Source: a phage. From it: a DNA stretch of 64,000 bases. Below the pieces are notes generated by a model. The model searched no databases and was not told the DNA's origin. It saw only the letters and a list, made by a program, of their open reading frames with translations. Location of the stretch: the sequence record PX104380.1, one strand, 5' to 3'. A program made the translations under genes and the position numbers. Of this stretch, positions 22,957-31,473 are shown in pieces; position 1 is the first letter of the stretch, and the number at the start of each line of letters is the position of its first letter.

Positions 22957-23166
22957 TTAACCCCGAAGCTTATTAAGTTCTTCATCATCAATCCAGGATT
23001 CTAGTCCTGTTGGCAGGTCACATTCAATTTCCCAAAGAAGTTCTTCAATTTTCTGAAGACGATCTAGTTCTTCAGCAGGAATAGTAACCATTGACGGAGC
23101 TCTTGCTACATTAATATCGTAAATCATATTTACCCCAGTTTGACCATACAATCGCCGTATTTCCAC
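22957..23166 (-). CDS. hypothetical protein
   Basis: 69 aa track ORF. Confidence 0.4.
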   Translation of the reverse strand: MEIRRLYGQTGVNMIYDINVARAPSMVTIPAEELDRLQKIEELLWEIECDLPTGLESWIDDEELNKLRG

Positions 23167-23345
23167 TTAGAAATAGACTTTTCACCATTAGAATAATAAA
23201 CTTCAAGTTTAGCACGATTATTTTTAATTTGAATAACCTTGGCTGTCATCAAAGTTCCATACCCATAATAAACTGCAACTTCATCACCTACATATACCGC
23301 GCTTCCGCGGTAATCATGGATATAATCAGTTCCTTCGAGCATCAT
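23130..23345 (-). CDS. hypothetical protein
   Basis: 71 aa track ORF. Confidence 0.4.
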   Translation of the reverse strand: MMLEGTDYIHDYRGSAVYVGDEVAVYYGYGTLMTAKVIQIKNNRAKLEVYYSNGEKSISKWKYGDCMVKLG

Positions 23346-23605
23346 TTAAAGTATTCCCGCAATTGGTCAAATCCACCAATATGACTTCCATCAGGAGCAA
23401 ATACTTGTGGCATTGTCAAACCAATTTGAGTATCACGACCTAGTTTAGTCAGAAGCTCAGCGATTTTCTCATCATCAAAAACACCTTTTTCCGGCATAAT
23501 GTTGATAAATTCAAACGGCTGTTTCTTCACGGTCAAAAGACGTTTTGCATTATCACAATACACGCATTTGTGGATGTTGCTATCATAACCATATACTTTA
23601 AACAT
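23342..23605 (-). CDS. nrdC: phage thioredoxin/glutaredoxin
   Basis: 87 aa, CVYC active site, same length as T4 NrdC. Confidence 0.8.
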   Translation of the reverse strand: MFKVYGYDSNIHKCVYCDNAKRLLTVKKQPFEFINIMPEKGVFDDEKIAELLTKLGRDTQIGLTMPQVFAPDGSHIGGFDQLREYFK

Positions 23606-23606
23606 A

Positions 23607-23849
23607 TTATTCCTTAATTCCTAGTACTTGTTTAAAAGTCTCGTCGTAATCAAGACTTTGACCCGTTTGTTCTTTATGTTTGTATATAATATCACTTACT
23701 TCTGATAGCATATTTTTATATGAACGAGTTAAAGCAGATTTAAGCACGCTGTATCTATCAGGAAATTTACCATGTTCATTATAATAAGCTATTGCTAATT
23801 CACGGACTGCCTTTTCAGCAGCCTCCATATATTCTTTACGCTTGGTCAT
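23607..23849 (-). CDS. hypothetical protein (nrdC.1-like)
   Basis: 80 aa. Confidence 0.5.
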
Positions 23850-23851
23850 TT

Positions 23852-24241
23852 TTAATCCAAAATATTATTAGGCATTGGTTGAACACTCACAAGTTCTTTA
23901 AAGAACTCAGTAGAATCAGGCAATTTAACCATTTCCGGAGCATGCTTACTGAATTTATGTTTACATTGACGGCATTTATATTCAAGCTCTGGTTTACGCC
24001 AGTTAATCAATTGAACTTGTTCAGTACCGCATTCAGGGCAATTAGGAACATTTTTAGAAGCTCTTTCACGTCGTTCAACCATAACCATAATGGCATCCCA
24101 AGCAGGAGGTTTAAAGTCTAAATCGTCACAACCATGAATCTTTCCACGCATTTCCAAATCGTCTTCTTCACCAGCCATAATAATTTTAATTAGACTAGAA
24201 TTACTTGAAGCTGCAATATCTTCTAATAAACGCTTTTTCAT
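23852..24241 (-). CDS. zinc-ribbon protein
   Basis: 129 aa; CPECG...CRQC four-Cys motif. Confidence 0.5.
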
Positions 24242-25164
24242 TTCAGTACCTCAATAGCATCACGTAAACCATTTGCTTTGGCGGTTAAAGCCTTAAGAAC
24301 TTTAGTATGCTCTTCAATTTGTTTTTCAACTTCAATCAAACGAGCATTGAGATATTCGCGTTCTTCTTTCATAGTATCATTTCCATGATTGGATTTTGGT
24401 GTAGGTTTAAATTCACTAGGGTCCTTTAACTTAATAACAAATTTAGTTTCAAACAGTGAAAGACCATAATTCGTATTATCATCAAAGGATTTAACTACAT
24501 CCATATTAGATAATAACTCATGCAAATTATAAGACAAAGAACTAATAGTTTCATTGTGTTTATTAGCTTCGCGTGGTTTCATATACGGAAGATTTTTATA
24601 TATCTCATGCGGAGCGCAAACGATAATTGACAATTCAAATTGTCCATTCTGGGACGATGGAATGAATTTAGCCGTAACCCAGTCTTTTACATTCACATTA
24701 ATAGTACGGTTATCACCATGACAAAACAGTCTACGAGAATGCTTAAAAAGCATATTCACGTTATTATTGAATTCGTGTGAAAATTCACTAGCAAATTTTT
24801 CTTTACTATCTTTAGAAAACCATTCTTCTAAATAAGTTCTTTTCACGTCATTAATAATATTAAATGTAACAACACTAGCATTTGATACATTAGTCTTAAT
24901 GTAGCTTGGATACATAAATTTTTTAACATTATTAACAGCTATCACAGAAGATAGTAATCGGGAACGTTTGAACCACTCGAGCAAAGAACCAAGAGAATGT
25001 GAATACGCATTTTGTGTATCTTTACAAATATGGTTTTCCCATCCAATATAGTCTAAAAAATCACGAAGAATATTATTGATTACTGCTCTGTGTCCGATCT
25101 GATAATTACGATGTTTAGTAATAAGACTGTCAAAATAATCAATATAATGTTTACGAGTTTTCAT
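24238..25164 (-). CDS. hypothetical protein with C-terminal coiled coil (paralog family member 1)
   Basis: 308 aa; begins MKTRKHY; shares LFKHSRRLFCHGD-type motif and C-terminal coiled coil with the next three genes. Confidence 0.55.
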   Translation of the reverse strand: MKTRKHYIDYFDSLITKHRNYQIGHRAVINNILRDFLDYIGWENHICKDTQNAYSHSLGSLLEWFKRSRLLSSVIAVNNVKKFMYPSYIKTNVSNASVVTFNIINDVKRTYLEEWFSKDSKEKFASEFSHEFNNNVNMLFKHSRRLFCHGDNRTINVNVKDWVTAKFIPSSQNGQFELSIIVCAPHEIYKNLPYMKPREANKHNETISSLSYNLHELLSNMDVVKSFDDNTNYGLSLFETKFVIKLKDPSEFKPTPKSNHGNDTMKEEREYLNARLIEVEKQIEEHTKVLKALTAKANGLRDAIEVLK

Positions 25165-25216
25165 GTTCTTCTCACTTGGTTAATGATTTATACTCCGAGC
25201 CATCCTTGGCTTTAAA

Positions 25217-26269
25217 TTACTTAATTAACTGTAAAGCCTGTTCTAAACGATCAAGACGATTAACAGATTCTTCCCAAATCCTTTTAGCCTGCTCATATTC
25301 TTTCTGCGCTTTATTAGAAATTTCTAGAACTTCTTTATAAGCTTTTTCTAATGCAATAACTTCTGGACGAATTTCTACCGGTTCAGGTGAATCATCAAGA
25401 CATTCCATTAGTTCCTCAAGGGTAGTTTCTTCTTTAGGAGTATTCACAATTTCATCACATTTTTGTTGGTAAATTTCTTTACTAGTAGGTGAATAAGTAC
25501 ATTTCACTTCACGAAGACTAACTACAATTTTATATCCTTCCCAACCGCATATATTCTTAAAAGGATATGTATGAATATTTTCTACCGTTTCCATACAAAG
25601 TAATGCAGTCTCTAACTGATGAGTTGTATCACTAGCAATTGAGAAAAATTTATTAATATTCTTTTGATTAGCTTCTGGTGTAAAAAATTCATAATTCACA
25701 AAAATAGCTGCTTTATTTTTATCAAGTTCATATTCTTTTATGATAATCATATCAGAAGCCAAAGGATGAATTTGACGATAATCGCCATAACATAATTTAG
25801 AAGCTGATTTTAGAATTTGCTTCTTGAAAAGTCTAAAATTACTAATCCAACGACGAGTAAAAATATTCTCAGGGTCTTCTTTATTATTAAGATGATAAGA
25901 ATTAACATCACCGAACCAACTGTATCCTACTACATCTTTGGTTCGTTTAATTTCTTTCCCAAAATTACTAAGAATATCTTGATTAACTAAATATGAAAGA
26001 AGACGAGACCCTTTAAAGGTTTCCTTAATATCATCTTTATCTACACGACTAGAAATTTTATGAACTTCATGAATAAATTTGCTGGAAGAAACAATACTTG
26101 CATCAGTATTGTTGAGCCACTGATTGATAATAGAAAGAACACTATTCTGACTAGACATAGGTTTAACTTTATCATCAATAACACTATTGAATGATTTGAT
26201 ATATTCGTTACGAGTCATATTAATCTCCTCAGTAGAAAGTAAGAACATTATACCACATCCTTGTGGCAA
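25217..26269 (-). CDS. hypothetical protein with C-terminal coiled coil (paralog family member 2)
   Basis: Track start lies inside the promoter; ATG at 26216-26218 (MTRNEYIKSF) with GGAG leader is the likely start; FRLFKKQILKSASKLCYGD motif. Confidence 0.55.
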   Translation of the reverse strand: MPQGCGIMFLLSTEEINMTRNEYIKSFNSVIDDKVKPMSSQNSVLSIINQWLNNTDASIVSSSKFIHEVHKISSRVDKDDIKETFKGSRLLSYLVNQDILSNFGKEIKRTKDVVGYSWFGDVNSYHLNNKEDPENIFTRRWISNFRLFKKQILKSASKLCYGDYRQIHPLASDMIIIKEYELDKNKAAIFVNYEFFTPEANQKNINKFFSIASDTTHQLETALLCMETVENIHTYPFKNICGWEGYKIVVSLREVKCTYSPTSKEIYQQKCDEIVNTPKEETTLEELMECLDDSPEPVEIRPEVIALEKAYKEVLEISNKAQKEYEQAKRIWEESVNRLDRLEQALQLIK

Positions 26270-26276
26270 AGTAAAC
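26247..26276 (-). promoter_or_regulatory. T4-type early promoter (-10 TATAAT)
   Basis: Plus attata at 26247-26252 and gtaaac at 26271-26276, 18-nt spacing. Confidence 0.5.
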
Positions 26277-27280
26277 TAGTTCAGTGCATTTAGTGCGTTG
26301 TTCAATTTAGAACGTTGCTTCGTGAGATTTTTTACTTTTTCTTGAGCTTTTTCTAGCATCTTTTCAGCTTCTAACACTTCATTAGTTGCTTTAACGAGTT
26401 CATCATCTACTGCCTTGATAGACTTCTCAATCGCATCCGCGTGCCATTTTTCAACAGGTTTAAGACTCGGATTTTCAACAGGAAGAAAATTCACTTTATT
26501 GAATTTCCATGCATCATTATTACCTGAACTATACATCCAAAATTTAGGATCGTTTGATGAGTAATTAGTTTGGTGTTCAGGTTTTTTCTCTTGTATAACT
26601 TCGTCCTTTCTCAAAAAATCGTATTTAAATGAAACGATCATATCAAGTTCATACGTTGTTGTGTCTAATTTAAATCGTTCAAAACGAGGTAAAATCTTAG
26701 ATTGAACAGCAGCAACAACATCCATATACTTAAATGCTTCTGTCAGCTGTGATTTAAGACATTCACAAATTGAAAGAGAATTTTTTGTATTAGGTTTAAA
26801 GCTAATTCGTGCAGTTCTATTATTTTCTTTTAATGGTCTTACTTCCATCTGAAGAGTATAACCATCAAATTTCAGGTTCTTTAAGTTAATGTCAGAACCT
26901 TTTAATCGACTAGCCGTCGACAAAATTTGCTTTAATTGTTTACGGAATAGAGCAATAAATCTCCATTCAATACGATAATGATTTGGATTGAAAAATCCAG
27001 ATGATAAATCGACCTTACTTTGACCAACGCCTTGAACAAATAAAGGATTTTTATAATCAATAGTTTTACAGAAATCGGTGAGCTGCTCACGAGCAGTCAT
27101 TTGTGTAATATACCCTGCTTCATTAAAATTACGCACCCATTCACTGCTATTCATATATTTAAAGTGAATGGAACTATTAACTTTATCAGGGTCTAAATTA
27201 TTTTGGCACAAAAATGTCATAACATCACGAGTATAGCTGGCATTACGAACCATATCTTCAATTTGAGAACGAGTTTTCAT
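26276..27280 (-). CDS. hypothetical protein with C-terminal coiled coil (paralog family member 3)
   Basis: 334 aa; begins MKTRSQIEDM; ALFRKQLKQILSTASRLKGSD motif. Confidence 0.55.
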   Translation of the reverse strand: MKTRSQIEDMVRNASYTRDVMTFLCQNNLDPDKVNSSIHFKYMNSSEWVRNFNEAGYITQMTAREQLTDFCKTIDYKNPLFVQGVGQSKVDLSSGFFNPNHYRIEWRFIALFRKQLKQILSTASRLKGSDINLKNLKFDGYTLQMEVRPLKENNRTARISFKPNTKNSLSICECLKSQLTEAFKYMDVVAAVQSKILPRFERFKLDTTTYELDMIVSFKYDFLRKDEVIQEKKPEHQTNYSSNDPKFWMYSSGNNDAWKFNKVNFLPVENPSLKPVEKWHADAIEKSIKAVDDELVKATNEVLEAEKMLEKAQEKVKNLTKQRSKLNNALNALN

Positions 27281-27288
27281 GGTGTTCC

Positions 27289-28191
27289 TTAAGATTTAAG
27301 TAAATCAACAATTTTAATTAATTTTTCACGTTCAGATTTAGCTTTACTACTCAATCCGGATAGTCTAAAGATTTCATCGTCATACTGTTGAATAGAAATA
27401 TTTAGCTCTTCAATTTGCTTATTAAAATAATCAATTTGCTCAGAATGTTTTTCGTTACTGCGAACTGGTACAGGTTTTGTAGGCAATTTAGTTAAACTGG
27501 ATTCATCCGGGCGATAAATTAAAATACAACTTGAACCAATCGGGCATTTTGCACCAGATGAATATTCTAATGTTCCGGCTTCTTTTAAAACTTCAAAAGC
27601 TAAACAGAGATGATGCCCCATATTAACATAATCTGTAGAGCGAGCTCTGACGTAATAATCATCGCCGCGAATACTAAATTTAAAGCATTTAAGGTCTTCT
27701 GTATTATTGGTCTTAAAAATCATTTGTTTATCTAGACCTTTAGCTAATCGAGCGCCTAATGCTAATAATCGTCGTTGATTTTCCCACAAATCTGCGATCA
27801 TTTGGTCAAATGATAATTTCGGCATTAGTCGACCATAAAGGTCATATCCTTTATTATAATTACGAAGGATTTCACTCGCGTTAATACGAGACAATGCTCC
27901 AATTTTATTAAGGGCTTTCATAATGCGATTAGATAAACCCATTCCAGACCCGTTTGTTCGCTGCAAATGTTTTTCTAATCCAAATCCAATATCAACTTTA
28001 AACTTATCTAAAATTTCTGCATGAACATCTCTGTCAATAACATTCAAATCCAAAGTTGGGTTAAATCTATGAAAAAATTTATCTGGCTCTCCACGACGAA
28101 GTACAGTCCATTCATTCATTTTTTTATTAACTAAAGATTTAATTACTGTATTGACATTATTAATTACTACTGACATATTTTTCTCACTCAA
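27289..28191 (-). CDS. hypothetical protein with C-terminal coiled coil (possible family member 4)
   Basis: 300 aa; weaker similarity (RLLALGARLAKGLD), same C-terminal architecture. Confidence 0.5.
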   Translation of the reverse strand: MSEKNMSVVINNVNTVIKSLVNKKMNEWTVLRRGEPDKFFHRFNPTLDLNVIDRDVHAEILDKFKVDIGFGLEKHLQRTNGSGMGLSNRIMKALNKIGALSRINASEILRNYNKGYDLYGRLMPKLSFDQMIADLWENQRRLLALGARLAKGLDKQMIFKTNNTEDLKCFKFSIRGDDYYVRARSTDYVNMGHHLCLAFEVLKEAGTLEYSSGAKCPIGSSCILIYRPDESSLTKLPTKPVPVRSNEKHSEQIDYFNKQIEELNISIQQYDDEIFRLSGLSSKAKSEREKLIKIVDLLKS

Positions 28192-28592
28192 TTTTCAATT
28201 TTACTAAATACACAGAATATGATGGAAAAGACTATATAAGCACCGCATACAGATTGAACTAATACCATTCCAAAGAACCAAACAATATTATCAAACAATG
28301 TCTGTTTTACGTCGAAAGGACGTAAACTTACAGTAATATTATCGCCTTTTTCTATTGATGAATACATCTCTGGTGAAATATATTCGCTAAATCTATAACC
28401 ATCATTCAGCTCATATACAGCAATAAACGATAAACTAGACCCCTTTCCTTGTGTTCCTGTAATAGTATTAACTACAGTAACATCATAATCTTTATAATGC
28501 ATATAATCATTAATTGCATAATAACCATATGCAATTACTATACATAAACAACATATCAATAAATTCAATCTTTTAATTATCAACTGTTTCAT
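28188..28592 (-). CDS. hypothetical membrane protein
   Basis: 134 aa with N- and C-terminal hydrophobic helices. Confidence 0.5.
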   Translation of the reverse strand: MKQLIIKRLNLLICCLCIVIAYGYYAINDYMHYKDYDVTVVNTITGTQGKGSSLSFIAVYELNDGYRFSEYISPEMYSSIEKGDNITVSLRPFDVKQTLFDNIVWFFGMVLVQSVCGAYIVFSIIFCVFSKIEN

Positions 28593-28647
28593 AATAATCT
28601 CAATTAAAAGGGCTTAGAACCATTATACCATCCTTGGTATAAAGCGG

Positions 28648-29175
28648 TTATGCGAGTACCGTCTTTAACCGTTCTTCAAACTTCCGAAGAGTATTCTGGC
28701 GTTCAGCTCTTTGCTTTTTGTAAGTTTCAATACGCTCTGAAATGAGAGTGTATCGTTCATTTACTGATTCTTTCATAAAATCAGGAATTTCACGAGAAGC
28801 TTTAATCTCATCAAATTTATCAATAACAGCTTGCTCTTCAGCAATTAAGTTATCATACATCAAAATATCTTTCTTGATGAACTCAATATCTTCTTGAGTT
28901 ACACGAGATAACTTAGATGCTTTATCCTTTTTGTACTGTTCGTTAGTATCACGAGACCAGTGTAATGTACGATTTTTATTCGTATTTTTGTAAATTTCTA
29001 CGATACCAATCTCATCAATAATAACGATCCAATTCCAACGGGATTTGTAAATTTGTCCTCCATCAACTGTGATTTCACCTCCGATTGAGATGTCATTAAA
29101 GAACTTGCTTTGTGCTTCAGATTTAAATTTACCATCGTTGTAATTTACCAAGTTGAAAATATCTTTAGCGTTCAT
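28648..29175 (-). CDS. hypothetical protein
   Basis: 175 aa; ATG at 29175 preceded by conserved early promoter/leader cassette. Confidence 0.55.
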   Translation of the reverse strand: MNAKDIFNLVNYNDGKFKSEAQSKFFNDISIGGEITVDGGQIYKSRWNWIVIIDEIGIVEIYKNTNKNRTLHWSRDTNEQYKKDKASKLSRVTQEDIEFIKKDILMYDNLIAEEQAVIDKFDEIKASREIPDFMKESVNERYTLISERIETYKKQRAERQNTLRKFEERLKTVLA

Positions 29176-29203
29176 TTTCTGTTCCTCTGTAGTTGATAGT
29201 TGT

Positions 29204-29233
29204 ATAGTACCACAGAGGAACAGTCTTGTAAAC
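29204..29233 (-). promoter_or_regulatory. T4-type early promoter with conserved leader
   Basis: Plus atagta at 29204-29209 and tgtaaac at 29227-29233. Confidence 0.55.
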
Positions 29234-29235
29234 CA

Positions 29236-29550
29236 CTAAAAGAAACTTCTTTCACAATTTTTTCCACTGAACCACGCGCTCACTGCTTTCTTAGTCTCAG
29301 GAGCAGTGTTATCCATAAACCATTCAAAGGCAGCCTTTTTATGATTCTGGAGGGCTTCTCGGGCTTTAATCTGCTCACGGTCTATTAACACTAACATATG
29401 AGCCTTTCTTGTCACCAAGGGCTTCTTATGATTTTTTGAATACTCCCAATCATTTGTCCATCGCATCGTTGTTGCGAACTGAAATACTGCTTCTTTAATT
29501 TTAGTTTCGTAAATTTCACGAGCCTTTGAGTATAACATCATTACCTCCAT
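29236..29550 (-). CDS. hypothetical protein
   Basis: 104 aa track ORF. Confidence 0.5.
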   Translation of the reverse strand: MEVMMLYSKAREIYETKIKEAVFQFATTMRWTNDWEYSKNHKKPLVTRKAHMLVLIDREQIKAREALQNHKKAAFEWFMDNTAPETKKAVSAWFSGKNCERSFF

Positions 29551-29620: not shown

Positions 29621-30340
29621 TTAGGATTCTTCTAAATGTCTTTTCTGAAAAGTTGATACCATACTACGATACGGTTCATTTGGATACCCGTGTTTTATAG
29701 CTTCCTTTGTAAATTTTCTCCATCCATATTTAGTTTCTTTCCAAAGCTCGAATAATTCATCTTCATACTGCCATATAGTTAAATGAGAACGCTTTGCAGC
29801 TTTAATTCCATTAATATGCTTTTCTTTTACTACAGGATTGCTTAGTTTCTTTTTAATAATATTACTAACTTTTCTAACAAAAACTGGGTCCTTATATCGT
29901 TGCGAAGTTTTTATTGAAGTGTTTAATTTAGCTTCCGGTGTGGATGTGACCTCTTTCATCTTTTTCTTCATATGCTGTATATGATTAGGATTTTTCCATA
30001 AATTTATAGAATGCTTTTTGCATTTTATCCTAGTTTCATCTGCAACCTTTCCTCCTTCACCTCCGTATGACAGGTTAACACAGTTTTTTCCATATTTCAA
30101 TTTACCTGCCATGATATATAATATTTCAGCTTGTACCATTTTATCATAATTATCAAAAACTTCTAAAACCGTTTTTGATAATATGTGGTCATTTGACACT
30201 TTTACACGTTCTATATAATTTCCACTACCAACATACGAATCATTGATGTTATTAGTTATATGTCGACCATAATAGTATTTCTTAATACCTGTCTTTAAAT
30301 TTAATATTTCAGTTTTATAGATAGTAAAATATTTTTTCAT
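29621..30340 (-). CDS. free-standing GIY-YIG-like homing endonuclease
   Basis: 239 aa; FTIYKTEILNLKTGIKKYYYGRH then NINDSYVGSG, the same motif as the 19197-20027 protein. Confidence 0.6.
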   Translation of the reverse strand: MKKYFTIYKTEILNLKTGIKKYYYGRHITNNINDSYVGSGNYIERVKVSNDHILSKTVLEVFDNYDKMVQAEILYIMAGKLKYGKNCVNLSYGGEGGKVADETRIKCKKHSINLWKNPNHIQHMKKKMKEVTSTPEAKLNTSIKTSQRYKDPVFVRKVSNIIKKKLSNPVVKEKHINGIKAAKRSHLTIWQYEDELFELWKETKYGWRKFTKEAIKHGYPNEPYRSMVSTFQKRHLEES

Positions 30341-31473
30341 TTTAATAATACCGTTTCAGCAATTTCTTCCCAATGATTTTTGTCGGTCATAATAAAGTCA
30401 GCAAGATAAAGAGCAGTACGCAGTGAAACATTGCGTAAACGATTAACATTGACTTTCATCCATGATAATGCTTTATAAGTTTCTTCATCAGAAAGACCGC
30501 GCTTTTGCATCATGTCAGTTGAAAGAATAACATCTTCAACCCTGACCATAATTTCTTCATTAGTGTGAACACCCAAATCCAAATAAACTGAGCGGGACAC
30601 TAATGCTTGTAAATGTGGAGCAAGTTTAGTACCACGGTCTAATTCGCGGTCAATGTCAACGTTTGTGATAAAAACAATCGTTCCTTTAAATTCAAACTCA
30701 CGCTCAATGCCTTTTTCTTCTAAGTAAGAAGATGCGGTGCTCCAGCAGACTTTACGGGTCTCTCCAGTGTCCAGAGCAGCTTTCAGAAGATTAAGAATGT
30801 CCATATCAGAGAAAACATCCACATCATCAATCAAAAGGACAGAATTCTCTTCACGATTATTCCAAAGCTGTTCATAAAGACCGATACCAGAGATTTTACC
30901 ATTAATGCTTTTATACTCAATGTATCCAATATCATTTGCTTTATTTAAAGCTTTATCTAAAGAATACGTTTTACCAATACCCGCCGCGCCAGAGATAATT
31001 AATGAACGAATGTTTCCGTTAATAATACCATTCGTCATCATTCCCATAACATTAAATCTTTTATTAATGCGGGTTTTCATATCTTCATACGATTCTTTAA
31101 CTTCTTCAACTTTTACACCATCATATGAAATGTCTGATTTGTAAACCCAAACACCGCGACGTTTACCGTCAATTTCAACAAAAACTTTACCATCTCCTTG
31201 TGCATCTACTGGAGCATTATCAGGGAACCACTCACCTAAGAGTTCAAAGGTTCCAGAGATTTCTTTGCCAAAGTAAATACCCTTATTGATAGTTACAGTT
31301 TTCATTTTATTCTCCAAATCTGTATCAGTTGATAGTTGTATAGTACCATAAAGCTTTATGCTTGTAAACAACTTTGTGAAAAATTTTTGAAATAAAAAAA
31401 GGGAGCCCGAAGGCTCCCTATCATTTATAATAACTTCGATGGTTTTCAAGATAGACCTTCTCAAGGAAGTCAT
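30337..31473 (-). CDS. AAA-type P-loop ATPase (nrdC.10-like)
   Basis: Walker A GAAGIGKT, Walker B LLIDDVD; track N-terminus runs through the promoter; ATG at 31303-31305 with GGAG leader gives about 322 aa. Confidence 0.7.
   Translation of the reverse strand: MTSLRRSILKTIEVIINDREPSGSLFLFQKFFTKLFTSIKLYGTIQLSTDTDLENKMKTVTINKGIYFGKEISGTFELLGEWFPDNAPVDAQGDGKVFVEIDGKRRGVWVYKSDISYDGVKVEEVKESYEDMKTRINKRFNVMGMMTNGIINGNIRSLIISGAAGIGKTYSLDKALNKANDIGYIEYKSINGKISGIGLYEQLWNNREENSVLLIDDVDVFSDMDILNLLKAALDTGETRKVCWSTASSYLEEKGIEREFEFKGTIVFITNVDIDRELDRGTKLAPHLQALVSRSVYLDLGVHTNEEIMVRVEDVILSTDMMQKRGLSDEETYKALSWMKVNVNRLRNVSLRTALYLADFIMTDKNHWEEIAETVLLK
31340..31369 (-). promoter_or_regulatory. T4-type early promoter with conserved leader
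   Basis: Plus atagta at 31340-31345 and tgtaaac at 31363-31369. Confidence 0.55.
31401..31418 (-). terminator. stem-loop between the nucleotidyltransferase-like gene and the promoter
   Basis: Plus gggagcccgaaggctccc, flanked by A-run on plus (U-run on minus). Confidence 0.5.

Follow-up and report, generated by a model that had tools for sequence, protein, structure and literature searches.

In the 64,000-nucleotide stretch of phage DNA analysed here (sequence record PX104380.1, hereafter the window), four consecutive genes, the orthologues of T4 nrdC.3, nrdC.4, nrdC.5 and nrdC.6, code for proteins that the databases file as three families (NrdC.3/NrdC.4, NrdC.5 and NrdC.6). Comparison of sequence profiles joins the first two of these firmly and NrdC.6 tentatively. 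As NrdC.5 is known to disarm the host defence protein Dsr1, its relatives NrdC.3, NrdC.4 and NrdC.6 are good candidate immune-evasion proteins, and we lean slightly towards the reading that the four genes form one diverged paralogue family of early-expressed, dispensable coiled-coil proteins acting as stoichiometric immune antagonists. The genes themselves are long-known T4 open reading frames (ORFs); the modestly new element is the family-level link among NrdC.3-NrdC.6, which a literature search did not find treated as one family in any paper.

The window is a Tequatrovirus (T4-like) genome, and its positions 23000-29500 are 96-97% identical at the DNA level to other Tequatrovirus genomes (e.g., KAW1E185 and KMB42) and match 727 phage records. 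The names of the four genes are those used in KMB42, RB6 and the T4 record U76612, and their products will be labelled A (NrdC.3), B (NrdC.4), C (NrdC.5) and D (NrdC.6). All lie on the minus strand, between the glutaredoxin gene nrdC and nrdC.7-nrdC.11, where a sequence-only reading of the window had already listed four consecutive genes, two of which needed a corrected start. The nrdC.3 orthologue (24238-25164, 308 amino acids) is identified by its ORF, by the annotation in KMB42, T4 and RB6, by PHROG 1435 and by its hhalign comparison with the NrdC.4 family, and that of nrdC.4 (25217-26218, 333 amino acids from the ATG at 26218) by PHROG 1435, by its promoter and ribosome-binding site and by the T4 annotation. 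The nrdC.5 orthologue (26276-27280, 334 amino acids) is 92% identical to T4 NrdC.5, has the same neighbours, matches PHROG 2351 and is linked to the other families by hhalign; it also scores 393.6 bits against Pfam DUF7235 (PF23882; gathering cut-off 30), with residues 1-334 on profile positions 1-307 of 307. Finally, the orthologue of nrdC.6 (27289-28176, 295 amino acids from the ATG at 28176), a probable remote paralogue, is recognised by PHROG 2257 (E 1.1e-152 over residues 6-300 of the 300-residue ORF translation from 28191), by its AlphaFold2 (AF2) model and by weak, register-consistent profile alignments to B and C; its homologues carry PF26899.

Pairwise comparison alone would leave room for the view that the likenesses among these proteins are a matter of chance, or an artefact of coiled-coil composition, with no paralogy behind them. 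BLASTP found only the A-B pair (E 0.007, 24% identity over 266 residues) and was not significant for the remaining five of the six pairs. The profile evidence, by contrast, refutes this view for A, B and C. A single PHROG (1435) covers the whole length of both A (E 4.6e-100, residues 2-308) and B (E 5.3e-166, residues 1-333), and all database homologues of B carry PF26897, the NrdC.3/NrdC.4 family. When family alignments were built from database homologues and from orthologues extracted from related phage loci, hhalign gave a probability of 98% for A-B (E 3e-14 to 6e-14), 95% for A and B together against C (E 2e-8 to 6e-8) and 88% for B-C (E 3e-6), the real pairs scoring 50-100 versus 11-20 for the reversed-sequence controls. 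The similarity also survived the removal of the tails (A-B 98%, E 4e-14; A and B together against C 90%, E 1.4e-6; B-C 70%; A-C 62%) and, consequently, the link between A, B and C resides in the globular core and cannot be put down to coiled-coil composition. As a negative control, the unrelated neighbour NrdC.8 reached at most 1.1% against all four families, and it was rejected as a fifth member for that reason. We thus give an origin by chance or composition practically no weight, and the profiles show NrdC.3, NrdC.4 and NrdC.5 to be one old, strongly diverged paralogue family.

The depth of the alignments mattered for this result, the first round of hhalign, run with shallow families, having returned the A-B link only. 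A match of the NrdC.5 profile on RB6 NrdC.3 was discarded as false, as it was caused by the presence in the NrdC.5 set of P0120, a deletion fusion of nrdC.5 and nrdC.3, which was taken out of all later profiles. No bridge from NrdC.5 to the other families emerged when its profile was run with HMMER against 1.84 billion representatives. At the DNA level, the only repeats that connect the paralogues are remnants of 14-22 nucleotides (nt), which argues that the duplications are old. The tandem duplication and divergence that had been read from the sequence are thus borne out by profile-profile comparison for three of the genes and are probable for the fourth, as the alignments are significant among A, B and C and weak for D.

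The position of NrdC.6 requires more caution. In single hhalign comparisons, D reached 13-24% (P about 1e-3) and, with the tails removed, 19-24% against B (E about 1e-3), 4-5% against C and 0.5-3% against A. These low values would be expected if D were no paralogue but an unrelated early protein with a chance likeness in size, helical tail and helix motif. The same explanation would fit the lack in D of the M(K)TR N-terminus, its non-significant heptad score and the absence of Tequatrovirus NrdC.3, NrdC.4 and NrdC.5 from the Foldseek results obtained with the D model. A stronger A-D link (91%), obtained via the Tegunavirus intermediate Yen_94, was largely dependent on the tail and has not been counted as proof. 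On the other side, three independent profile alignments (B-C, B-D and C-D) place the same residues opposite each other in 34 of the 45 columns that they have in common, and do so in two blocks separated by about 40 residues; the real D pairs score 25-32 versus 11-16 for reversed controls and 16-19 for NrdC.8. The AF2 models of D (mean predicted local distance difference test, pLDDT, 78.9) and C (a poor model, pLDDT 55) present their elements in the same order, namely two helices, the motif helix, a beta-hairpin, a helix, a beta-hairpin, a disordered linker and a terminal helix. In a joint MAFFT alignment four blocks line up in all four families, which also have in common the C-terminal ending L..A[LI]..LK. 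Additionally, the D and C models both match Merlin gp91 and a Cronus protein in BFVD, and in all the genera examined D is the gene directly upstream of C. The agreement in register, the order of the secondary structure elements, the shared blocks and ending and the conserved synteny favour homology; we consider it probable that NrdC.6 belongs with NrdC.3, NrdC.4 and NrdC.5, and unlikely, with a chance that still has to be reckoned with, that its likeness to them is fortuitous.

The four proteins have a common build, in which a variable N-terminal helical part is followed by a conserved alpha/beta core, a flexible linker and a C-terminal helical tail of 40-60 residues. The order in the core is two helices, a motif helix (..A-S-[KR]-L..G.D), a beta-hairpin, a helix and a second beta-hairpin. 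The motif helix corresponds to an internal motif that had been noticed in the sequence alone; it proved to be real, to fall where the C and D families are most strongly conserved and to be aligned in the joint alignment. On the minus strand it is found at 24712-24771 in A (FNNNVNMLFKHSRRLFCHGD, residues 132-151, placed by the superfamily alignment), at 25781-25837 in B (FRLFKKQILKSASKLCYGD, residues 128-146, from the hhalign B-C and B-D alignments), at 26891-26947 in C (FRKQLKQILSTASRLKGSD, residues 112-130, where conservation in the family is highest; model helix 99-126) and at 27730-27789 in D (LWENQRRLLALGARLAKGLD, residues 130-149, likewise the most conserved block of its family; model helices 123-144). 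A common N-terminus of the form M(K)TR..Y, which had been proposed for the whole array, is present in A, B and C and missing in D.

All four tails are helical, and the coiled coils that had been read into them are supported by significant heptad segments in three of the proteins. The tails of A (residues 270-308, minus strand 24241-24357), B (residues 289-333, 25220-25354, aligned with the other tails) and C (residues 275-334, 26279-26458) have heptad scores of 0.79, 0.70 and 0.90, respectively, none of which was reached by any of 100 shuffles. For C, the model has a single helix at 275-333, with block-mean pLDDT values of 55-91 that exceed 80 only from about residue 301. The tail of D (residues 242-295, 27292-27453) does not follow this pattern, as its heptad score falls short of significance (it was reached by 6 of 100 shuffles) and AF2 predicts a helical hairpin at residues 242-294. 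Two further records also concern these tails. P0231, encoded by an 803-bp contig of the European Nucleotide Archive (L021), has 173 amino acids, of which an unrelated head of 120 residues precedes a tail 100% identical to that of the window's NrdC.5; it may have arisen by module swapping or by chimeric assembly, and the contig is too short to decide between the two. In T4 record U76612 (L003, 6623-7450), NrdC.6 has 275 amino acids and a divergent C-terminal end; since the current T4 annotation gives 891 nt (296 amino acids), a frameshift due to a sequencing error probably affects the tail region in that older record.

The array is not constant among related phages. Its layout is D-C-B-A in Tequatrovirus, D-C'-A in Mosigvirus and D-C'-B in other Tevenvirinae loci from IMG/VR, and in the Moonvirus Merlin there is one candidate relative in the same region, gp91, with weak structure and profile matches only. 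The NrdC.5 family is narrow and confined to the T4-like phage group, as its profile recovered 13 proteins among the 1.84 billion representatives. A scan of IMG/VR with the NrdC.6 alignment brought in nothing more divergent than 45-51% identity. When BFVD was searched by Foldseek with the D model, twelve proteins were found at E <1e-3, all with 280-378 amino acids, all from T4-like phages (of Escherichia, Shigella, Enterobacter, Pectobacterium, Acinetobacter, Klebsiella, Citrobacter, Erwinia and Yersinia) and all named only “uncharacterized” or “thioredoxin”. Among T4-like genera further removed, dispersed or single look-alikes were also observed in Yersinia phage fHe-Yen9-01 (L006, 14459-15337 and 21382-22323) and in Citrobacter phage Merlin (L022, 15166-16170). 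These have the block-1 helix, the motif helix and the L..A..L tail, and are candidate remote members with weak profile support; fHe-Yen9-01 gp111 and Merlin gp91 reach Foldseek E <1e-3, while Yen_94 has profile support only.

The analysis of copy number and selection, which the sequence-only reading had suggested, showed that the number of copies differs between genera and that the array has diverged far more rapidly than its surroundings. Between genera, identity is 23-28% for NrdC.5, 33-51% for NrdC.6, 40-51% for NrdC.4 and 55% for NrdC.3, compared with 66-91% for NrdC and 67-85% for NrdC.8. Within Tequatrovirus, the ratio of nonsynonymous to synonymous substitution rates (dN/dS) is 0.10-0.37 for nrdC.3, nrdC.4 and nrdC.5 and 0.04-0.15 for nrdC.6, compared with 0-0.06 for nrdD, gene 49, nrdC and nrdC.8; the flanking genes nrdC.1, nrdC.2, nrdC.7 and nrdC.9 have values of 0.12-0.24. 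NrdC.3 occurs in Tequatrovirus as two allele classes, with >90% and about 60% identity to the window copy, in otherwise near-identical genomes (the RB6 copy, L005 6001-6930, serves for comparison), while most flanking genes keep 87-100% identity, a pattern that looks like allelic replacement by recombination. NrdC.2, next to NrdC.3, also has variants of 61-81% identity. Several rearrangements were observed within the array: P0120 deletes nrdC.4 with a junction near NKVN/NNVNM, P0235 is a 48-residue fusion of the nrdC.5 N-terminus to the nrdC.4 C-terminus and, in one metagenomic phage (L010, 7950-8982), nrdC.4 is split into ORFs of 193 and 158 amino acids.

Direct evidence on function comes from T4. 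Srikant, Guegler and Laub (eLife 2022, PMC9391042) described an evolved T4 deletion mutant that had lost plating on ECOR17 and regained it when the host gene dsr1, encoding a SIR2-domain defence protein, was deleted; expression of T4 nrdC.5 also restored its plating on dsr1-carrying cells. The anti-defence role that had been guessed for the array fits, then, the published genetics of one member, and the description of its function as unknown no longer holds for nrdC.5 and still stands for nrdC.3, nrdC.4 and nrdC.6. The location of the genes in an early region was also confirmed, since the T4 annotation puts early promoters in this stretch and that promoter sequence recurs in the window. According to a 2026 preprint (PMC12803255), Dsr1 and Avs7 have a TPR sensor domain in common, and a co-expression screen identified the major capsid protein of phage ZL19 (Drexlerviridae) as what triggers Dsr1. 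A literature search found no published mechanism for NrdC.5.

The neighbourhood points in the same direction. According to the HIDEN-SEQ study, a 2025 preprint (bioRxiv 10.1101/2025.11.20.689424), nrdC.1 inhibits Septu and bas37_0203 inhibits Druantia III, and T4 nrdC.3-nrdC.6 and their Bas37 orthologues are non-essential in K-12. In the window, the orthologue of T4 nrdC.1 is at 23607-23849 and nrdC.8, of which bas37_0203 is the orthologue by size (528 nt) and position and which hhalign finds unrelated to the four paralogues, at 28648-29175. With nrdC.1, nrdC.5 and nrdC.8 together there, the block forms an anti-defence island.

On these grounds (a conserved scaffold with variable surfaces, early expression, dispensability in the laboratory host, fast evolution and variable copy number), we propose that the proteins are stoichiometric immune antagonists. 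NrdC.5 would neutralise the SIR2-type, NAD+-depleting Dsr1 by binding directly to it and, being made early, could do so before the late capsid trigger accumulates. The conserved core and tail would provide scaffold and oligomerisation, the tail oligomerising the protein, and the variable surfaces would give target specificity; NrdC.3, NrdC.4 and NrdC.6 may act likewise on other host immune proteins or on other variants of Dsr1. A more specific version, which we consider improbable and offer as speculation, would make the four paralogues modular sensor-blocking antagonists, with heads tuned to different host pattern-recognition proteins (as candidates, various members of the capsid-sensing TPR-sensor group to which Dsr1 and Avs7 belong), tails forming homo- or mixed oligomers, and new specificities arising by duplication and divergence of the head.

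It could also be asked whether such proteins are enzymes that counter defence catalytically, for instance by intervening in the metabolism of NAD+ or ADP-ribose or through a modification of Dsr1 or of what triggers it. Enzymes do underlie other phage responses to NAD+-depleting systems (NARP pathways), and each family has a conserved polar block of its own, such as YNKGYDLYGR in NrdC.6. By contrast, the columns conserved across families are almost all hydrophobic, with one Arg and a few charged tail positions, and apart from these no catalytic-type or polar residue is kept; nor did the four proteins match any Pfam, NCBIfam or PADLOC family, of enzymes or otherwise, beyond DUF7235 itself. These features suggest a binder rather than an enzyme, and we regard a catalytic family as very improbable.

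A different alternative is that NrdC.5 is the sole immune antagonist, and that NrdC.3, NrdC.4 and NrdC.6 have unrelated early functions (for example in taking over the host, or in association with nucleic acids or membranes) or are on the way to being lost. There is no published phenotype for these three genes, and none was reported by HIDEN-SEQ, its per-condition tables aside; A and D have a basic isoelectric point (pI), and the split nrdC.4 of L010 and the deletion fusions P0120 and P0235 argue that loss is tolerated. Nevertheless, purifying selection still acts on all four genes (dN/dS 0.04-0.37), the D-C-(B/A) order is kept across genera, and the three sit among several published anti-defence genes. 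We therefore consider it unlikely that NrdC.5 acts alone.

Several observations do weigh against regarding the four proteins as immune antagonists of one family. The globular part of NrdC.6 is linked to the other three only at P about 1e-3, and the BFVD search with its model did not return the Tequatrovirus NrdC.3, NrdC.4 or NrdC.5. The anti-Dsr1 result was obtained with T4 NrdC.5 and not with the 92%-identical copy of the window. There is no published binding, oligomerisation or anti-defence activity for NrdC.3, NrdC.4 or NrdC.6, and the HIDEN-SEQ study, its per-condition tables aside, reports anti-defence roles for nrdC.1 and the nrdC.8 orthologue and none for nrdC.3-nrdC.6. As dN/dS is below 1 throughout, selection on the array is relaxed or episodic and not demonstrably positive. 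The AF2 model of NrdC.5 is poor, as noted above, and a BFVD search with it gave template modelling scores of only about 0.2. Finally, the basic character of A, C and D (pI about 9.1-9.2) would also be compatible with binding to nucleic acids.

Comparison with known systems helps to place the family. The closest reference is T4 NrdC.5 itself (PF23882; PMC9391042), to which the window gene is orthologous, with a full-length DUF7235; its anti-Dsr1 activity is established for the T4 allele only, and the paper gives no mechanism and does not treat NrdC.3, NrdC.4 and NrdC.6 as relatives. A, B and D are direct orthologues of the uncharacterised T4 early ORFs NrdC.3/NrdC.4 (PHROG 1435, PF26897) and NrdC.6 (PHROG 2257, PF26899). 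DSAD1, the inhibitor of DSR2 from SPbeta-type phages, is described as counteracting or repressing DSR2 (PMC10981675, PMC11087589, PMC10973363). On that account it offers a functional analogy only, that of a phage protein against a SIR2 NADase defence, and differs from NrdC.5 in targeting DSR2, not Dsr1, and in coming from a different phage group. No likeness to it was found, since searches of all PDB chain sequences with the NrdC.5 and NrdC.6 profiles gave no relative of solved structure (apart from a chance ribosomal match, there was none at E up to 1). The anti-defence proteins gp49.2, which inhibits OLD (PMC13096335), NrdC.1 (anti-Septu) and Bas37_0203 (anti-Druantia III) come from the same early dispensable block and are accessory genes of the same kind. 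However, gp49.2, NrdC.1 and the NrdC.8 orthologue are not homologous to the four: NrdC.8 has no profile similarity to any of them, and gp49.2 and NrdC.1 are small proteins that lack the core-plus-tail build.

With regard to the gene models, the ORF of nrdC.4 can be extended to 26269. Within this longer ORF sits a GTTTACT-17-TATAAT promoter (26275-26247) and, immediately upstream of the ATG at 26218, a GAGGAG ribosome-binding site; as the T4 annotation agrees, translation is taken to start at 26218 (MTRNEY) and not at 26269. The promoter, of early type (TTTACT-17-TATAAT with TG; 26247-26275, minus strand), lies between nrdC.5 and nrdC.4 and was recognised by a consensus scan, by its sequence and by T4 record U76612, where “early promoter 50.0” is annotated at the homologous position. 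For nrdC.6, the start is most likely the ATG at 28176, which matches the annotated orthologues. In many deposited T4-like genomes (e.g., OR539221.1, L001), nrdC.1-nrdC.11, including the four genes discussed here, are labelled “thioredoxin”. None of the four proteins matched a thioredoxin or glutaredoxin domain in Pfam or NCBIfam and, consequently, the label appears to have been copied from the gene name nrdC.x.

Further features were observed downstream in coordinate order, outside the array. Between nrdC.9 and nrdC.10 there is a minus-strand ORF of 239 amino acids (29621-30340) at a site where T4 has none; it overlaps the start of the AAA-type NrdC.10 ORF and had no Pfam match at E <1e-3, and its RB6 counterpart, a 720-nt gene, is annotated as “putative site-specific intron-like DNA endonuclease”. 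Also on the minus strand, a strong terminator hairpin (31400-31419) with 8 pairs, of which 6 are G-C, and a T-run behind it is directly followed by a promoter-like site (31340-31368), and both match the T4 terminator and “early promoter 54.4” upstream of nrdC.10. As these elements occupy 31340-31419, the listed 378-residue NrdC.10 ORF probably starts downstream of 31473.

Few phage countermeasures to Dsr1, a widespread SIR2-type defence protein, are known, and NrdC.5 is one of them. Its relationship to its neighbours puts forward three genes of the best-studied phage family as immediate anti-defence candidates, as NrdC.3 and NrdC.4 share the core of NrdC.5 and NrdC.6 probably does. The comparison also corrects the widespread “thioredoxin” label on these genes, and would favour a single Pfam clan for PF26897, PF23882 and perhaps PF26899. 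In its light, specificity would be sought in the variable head and a shared mechanism in the conserved motif helix and tail; if the proteins did form a modular set, a single early gene array would give the phage broad protection.

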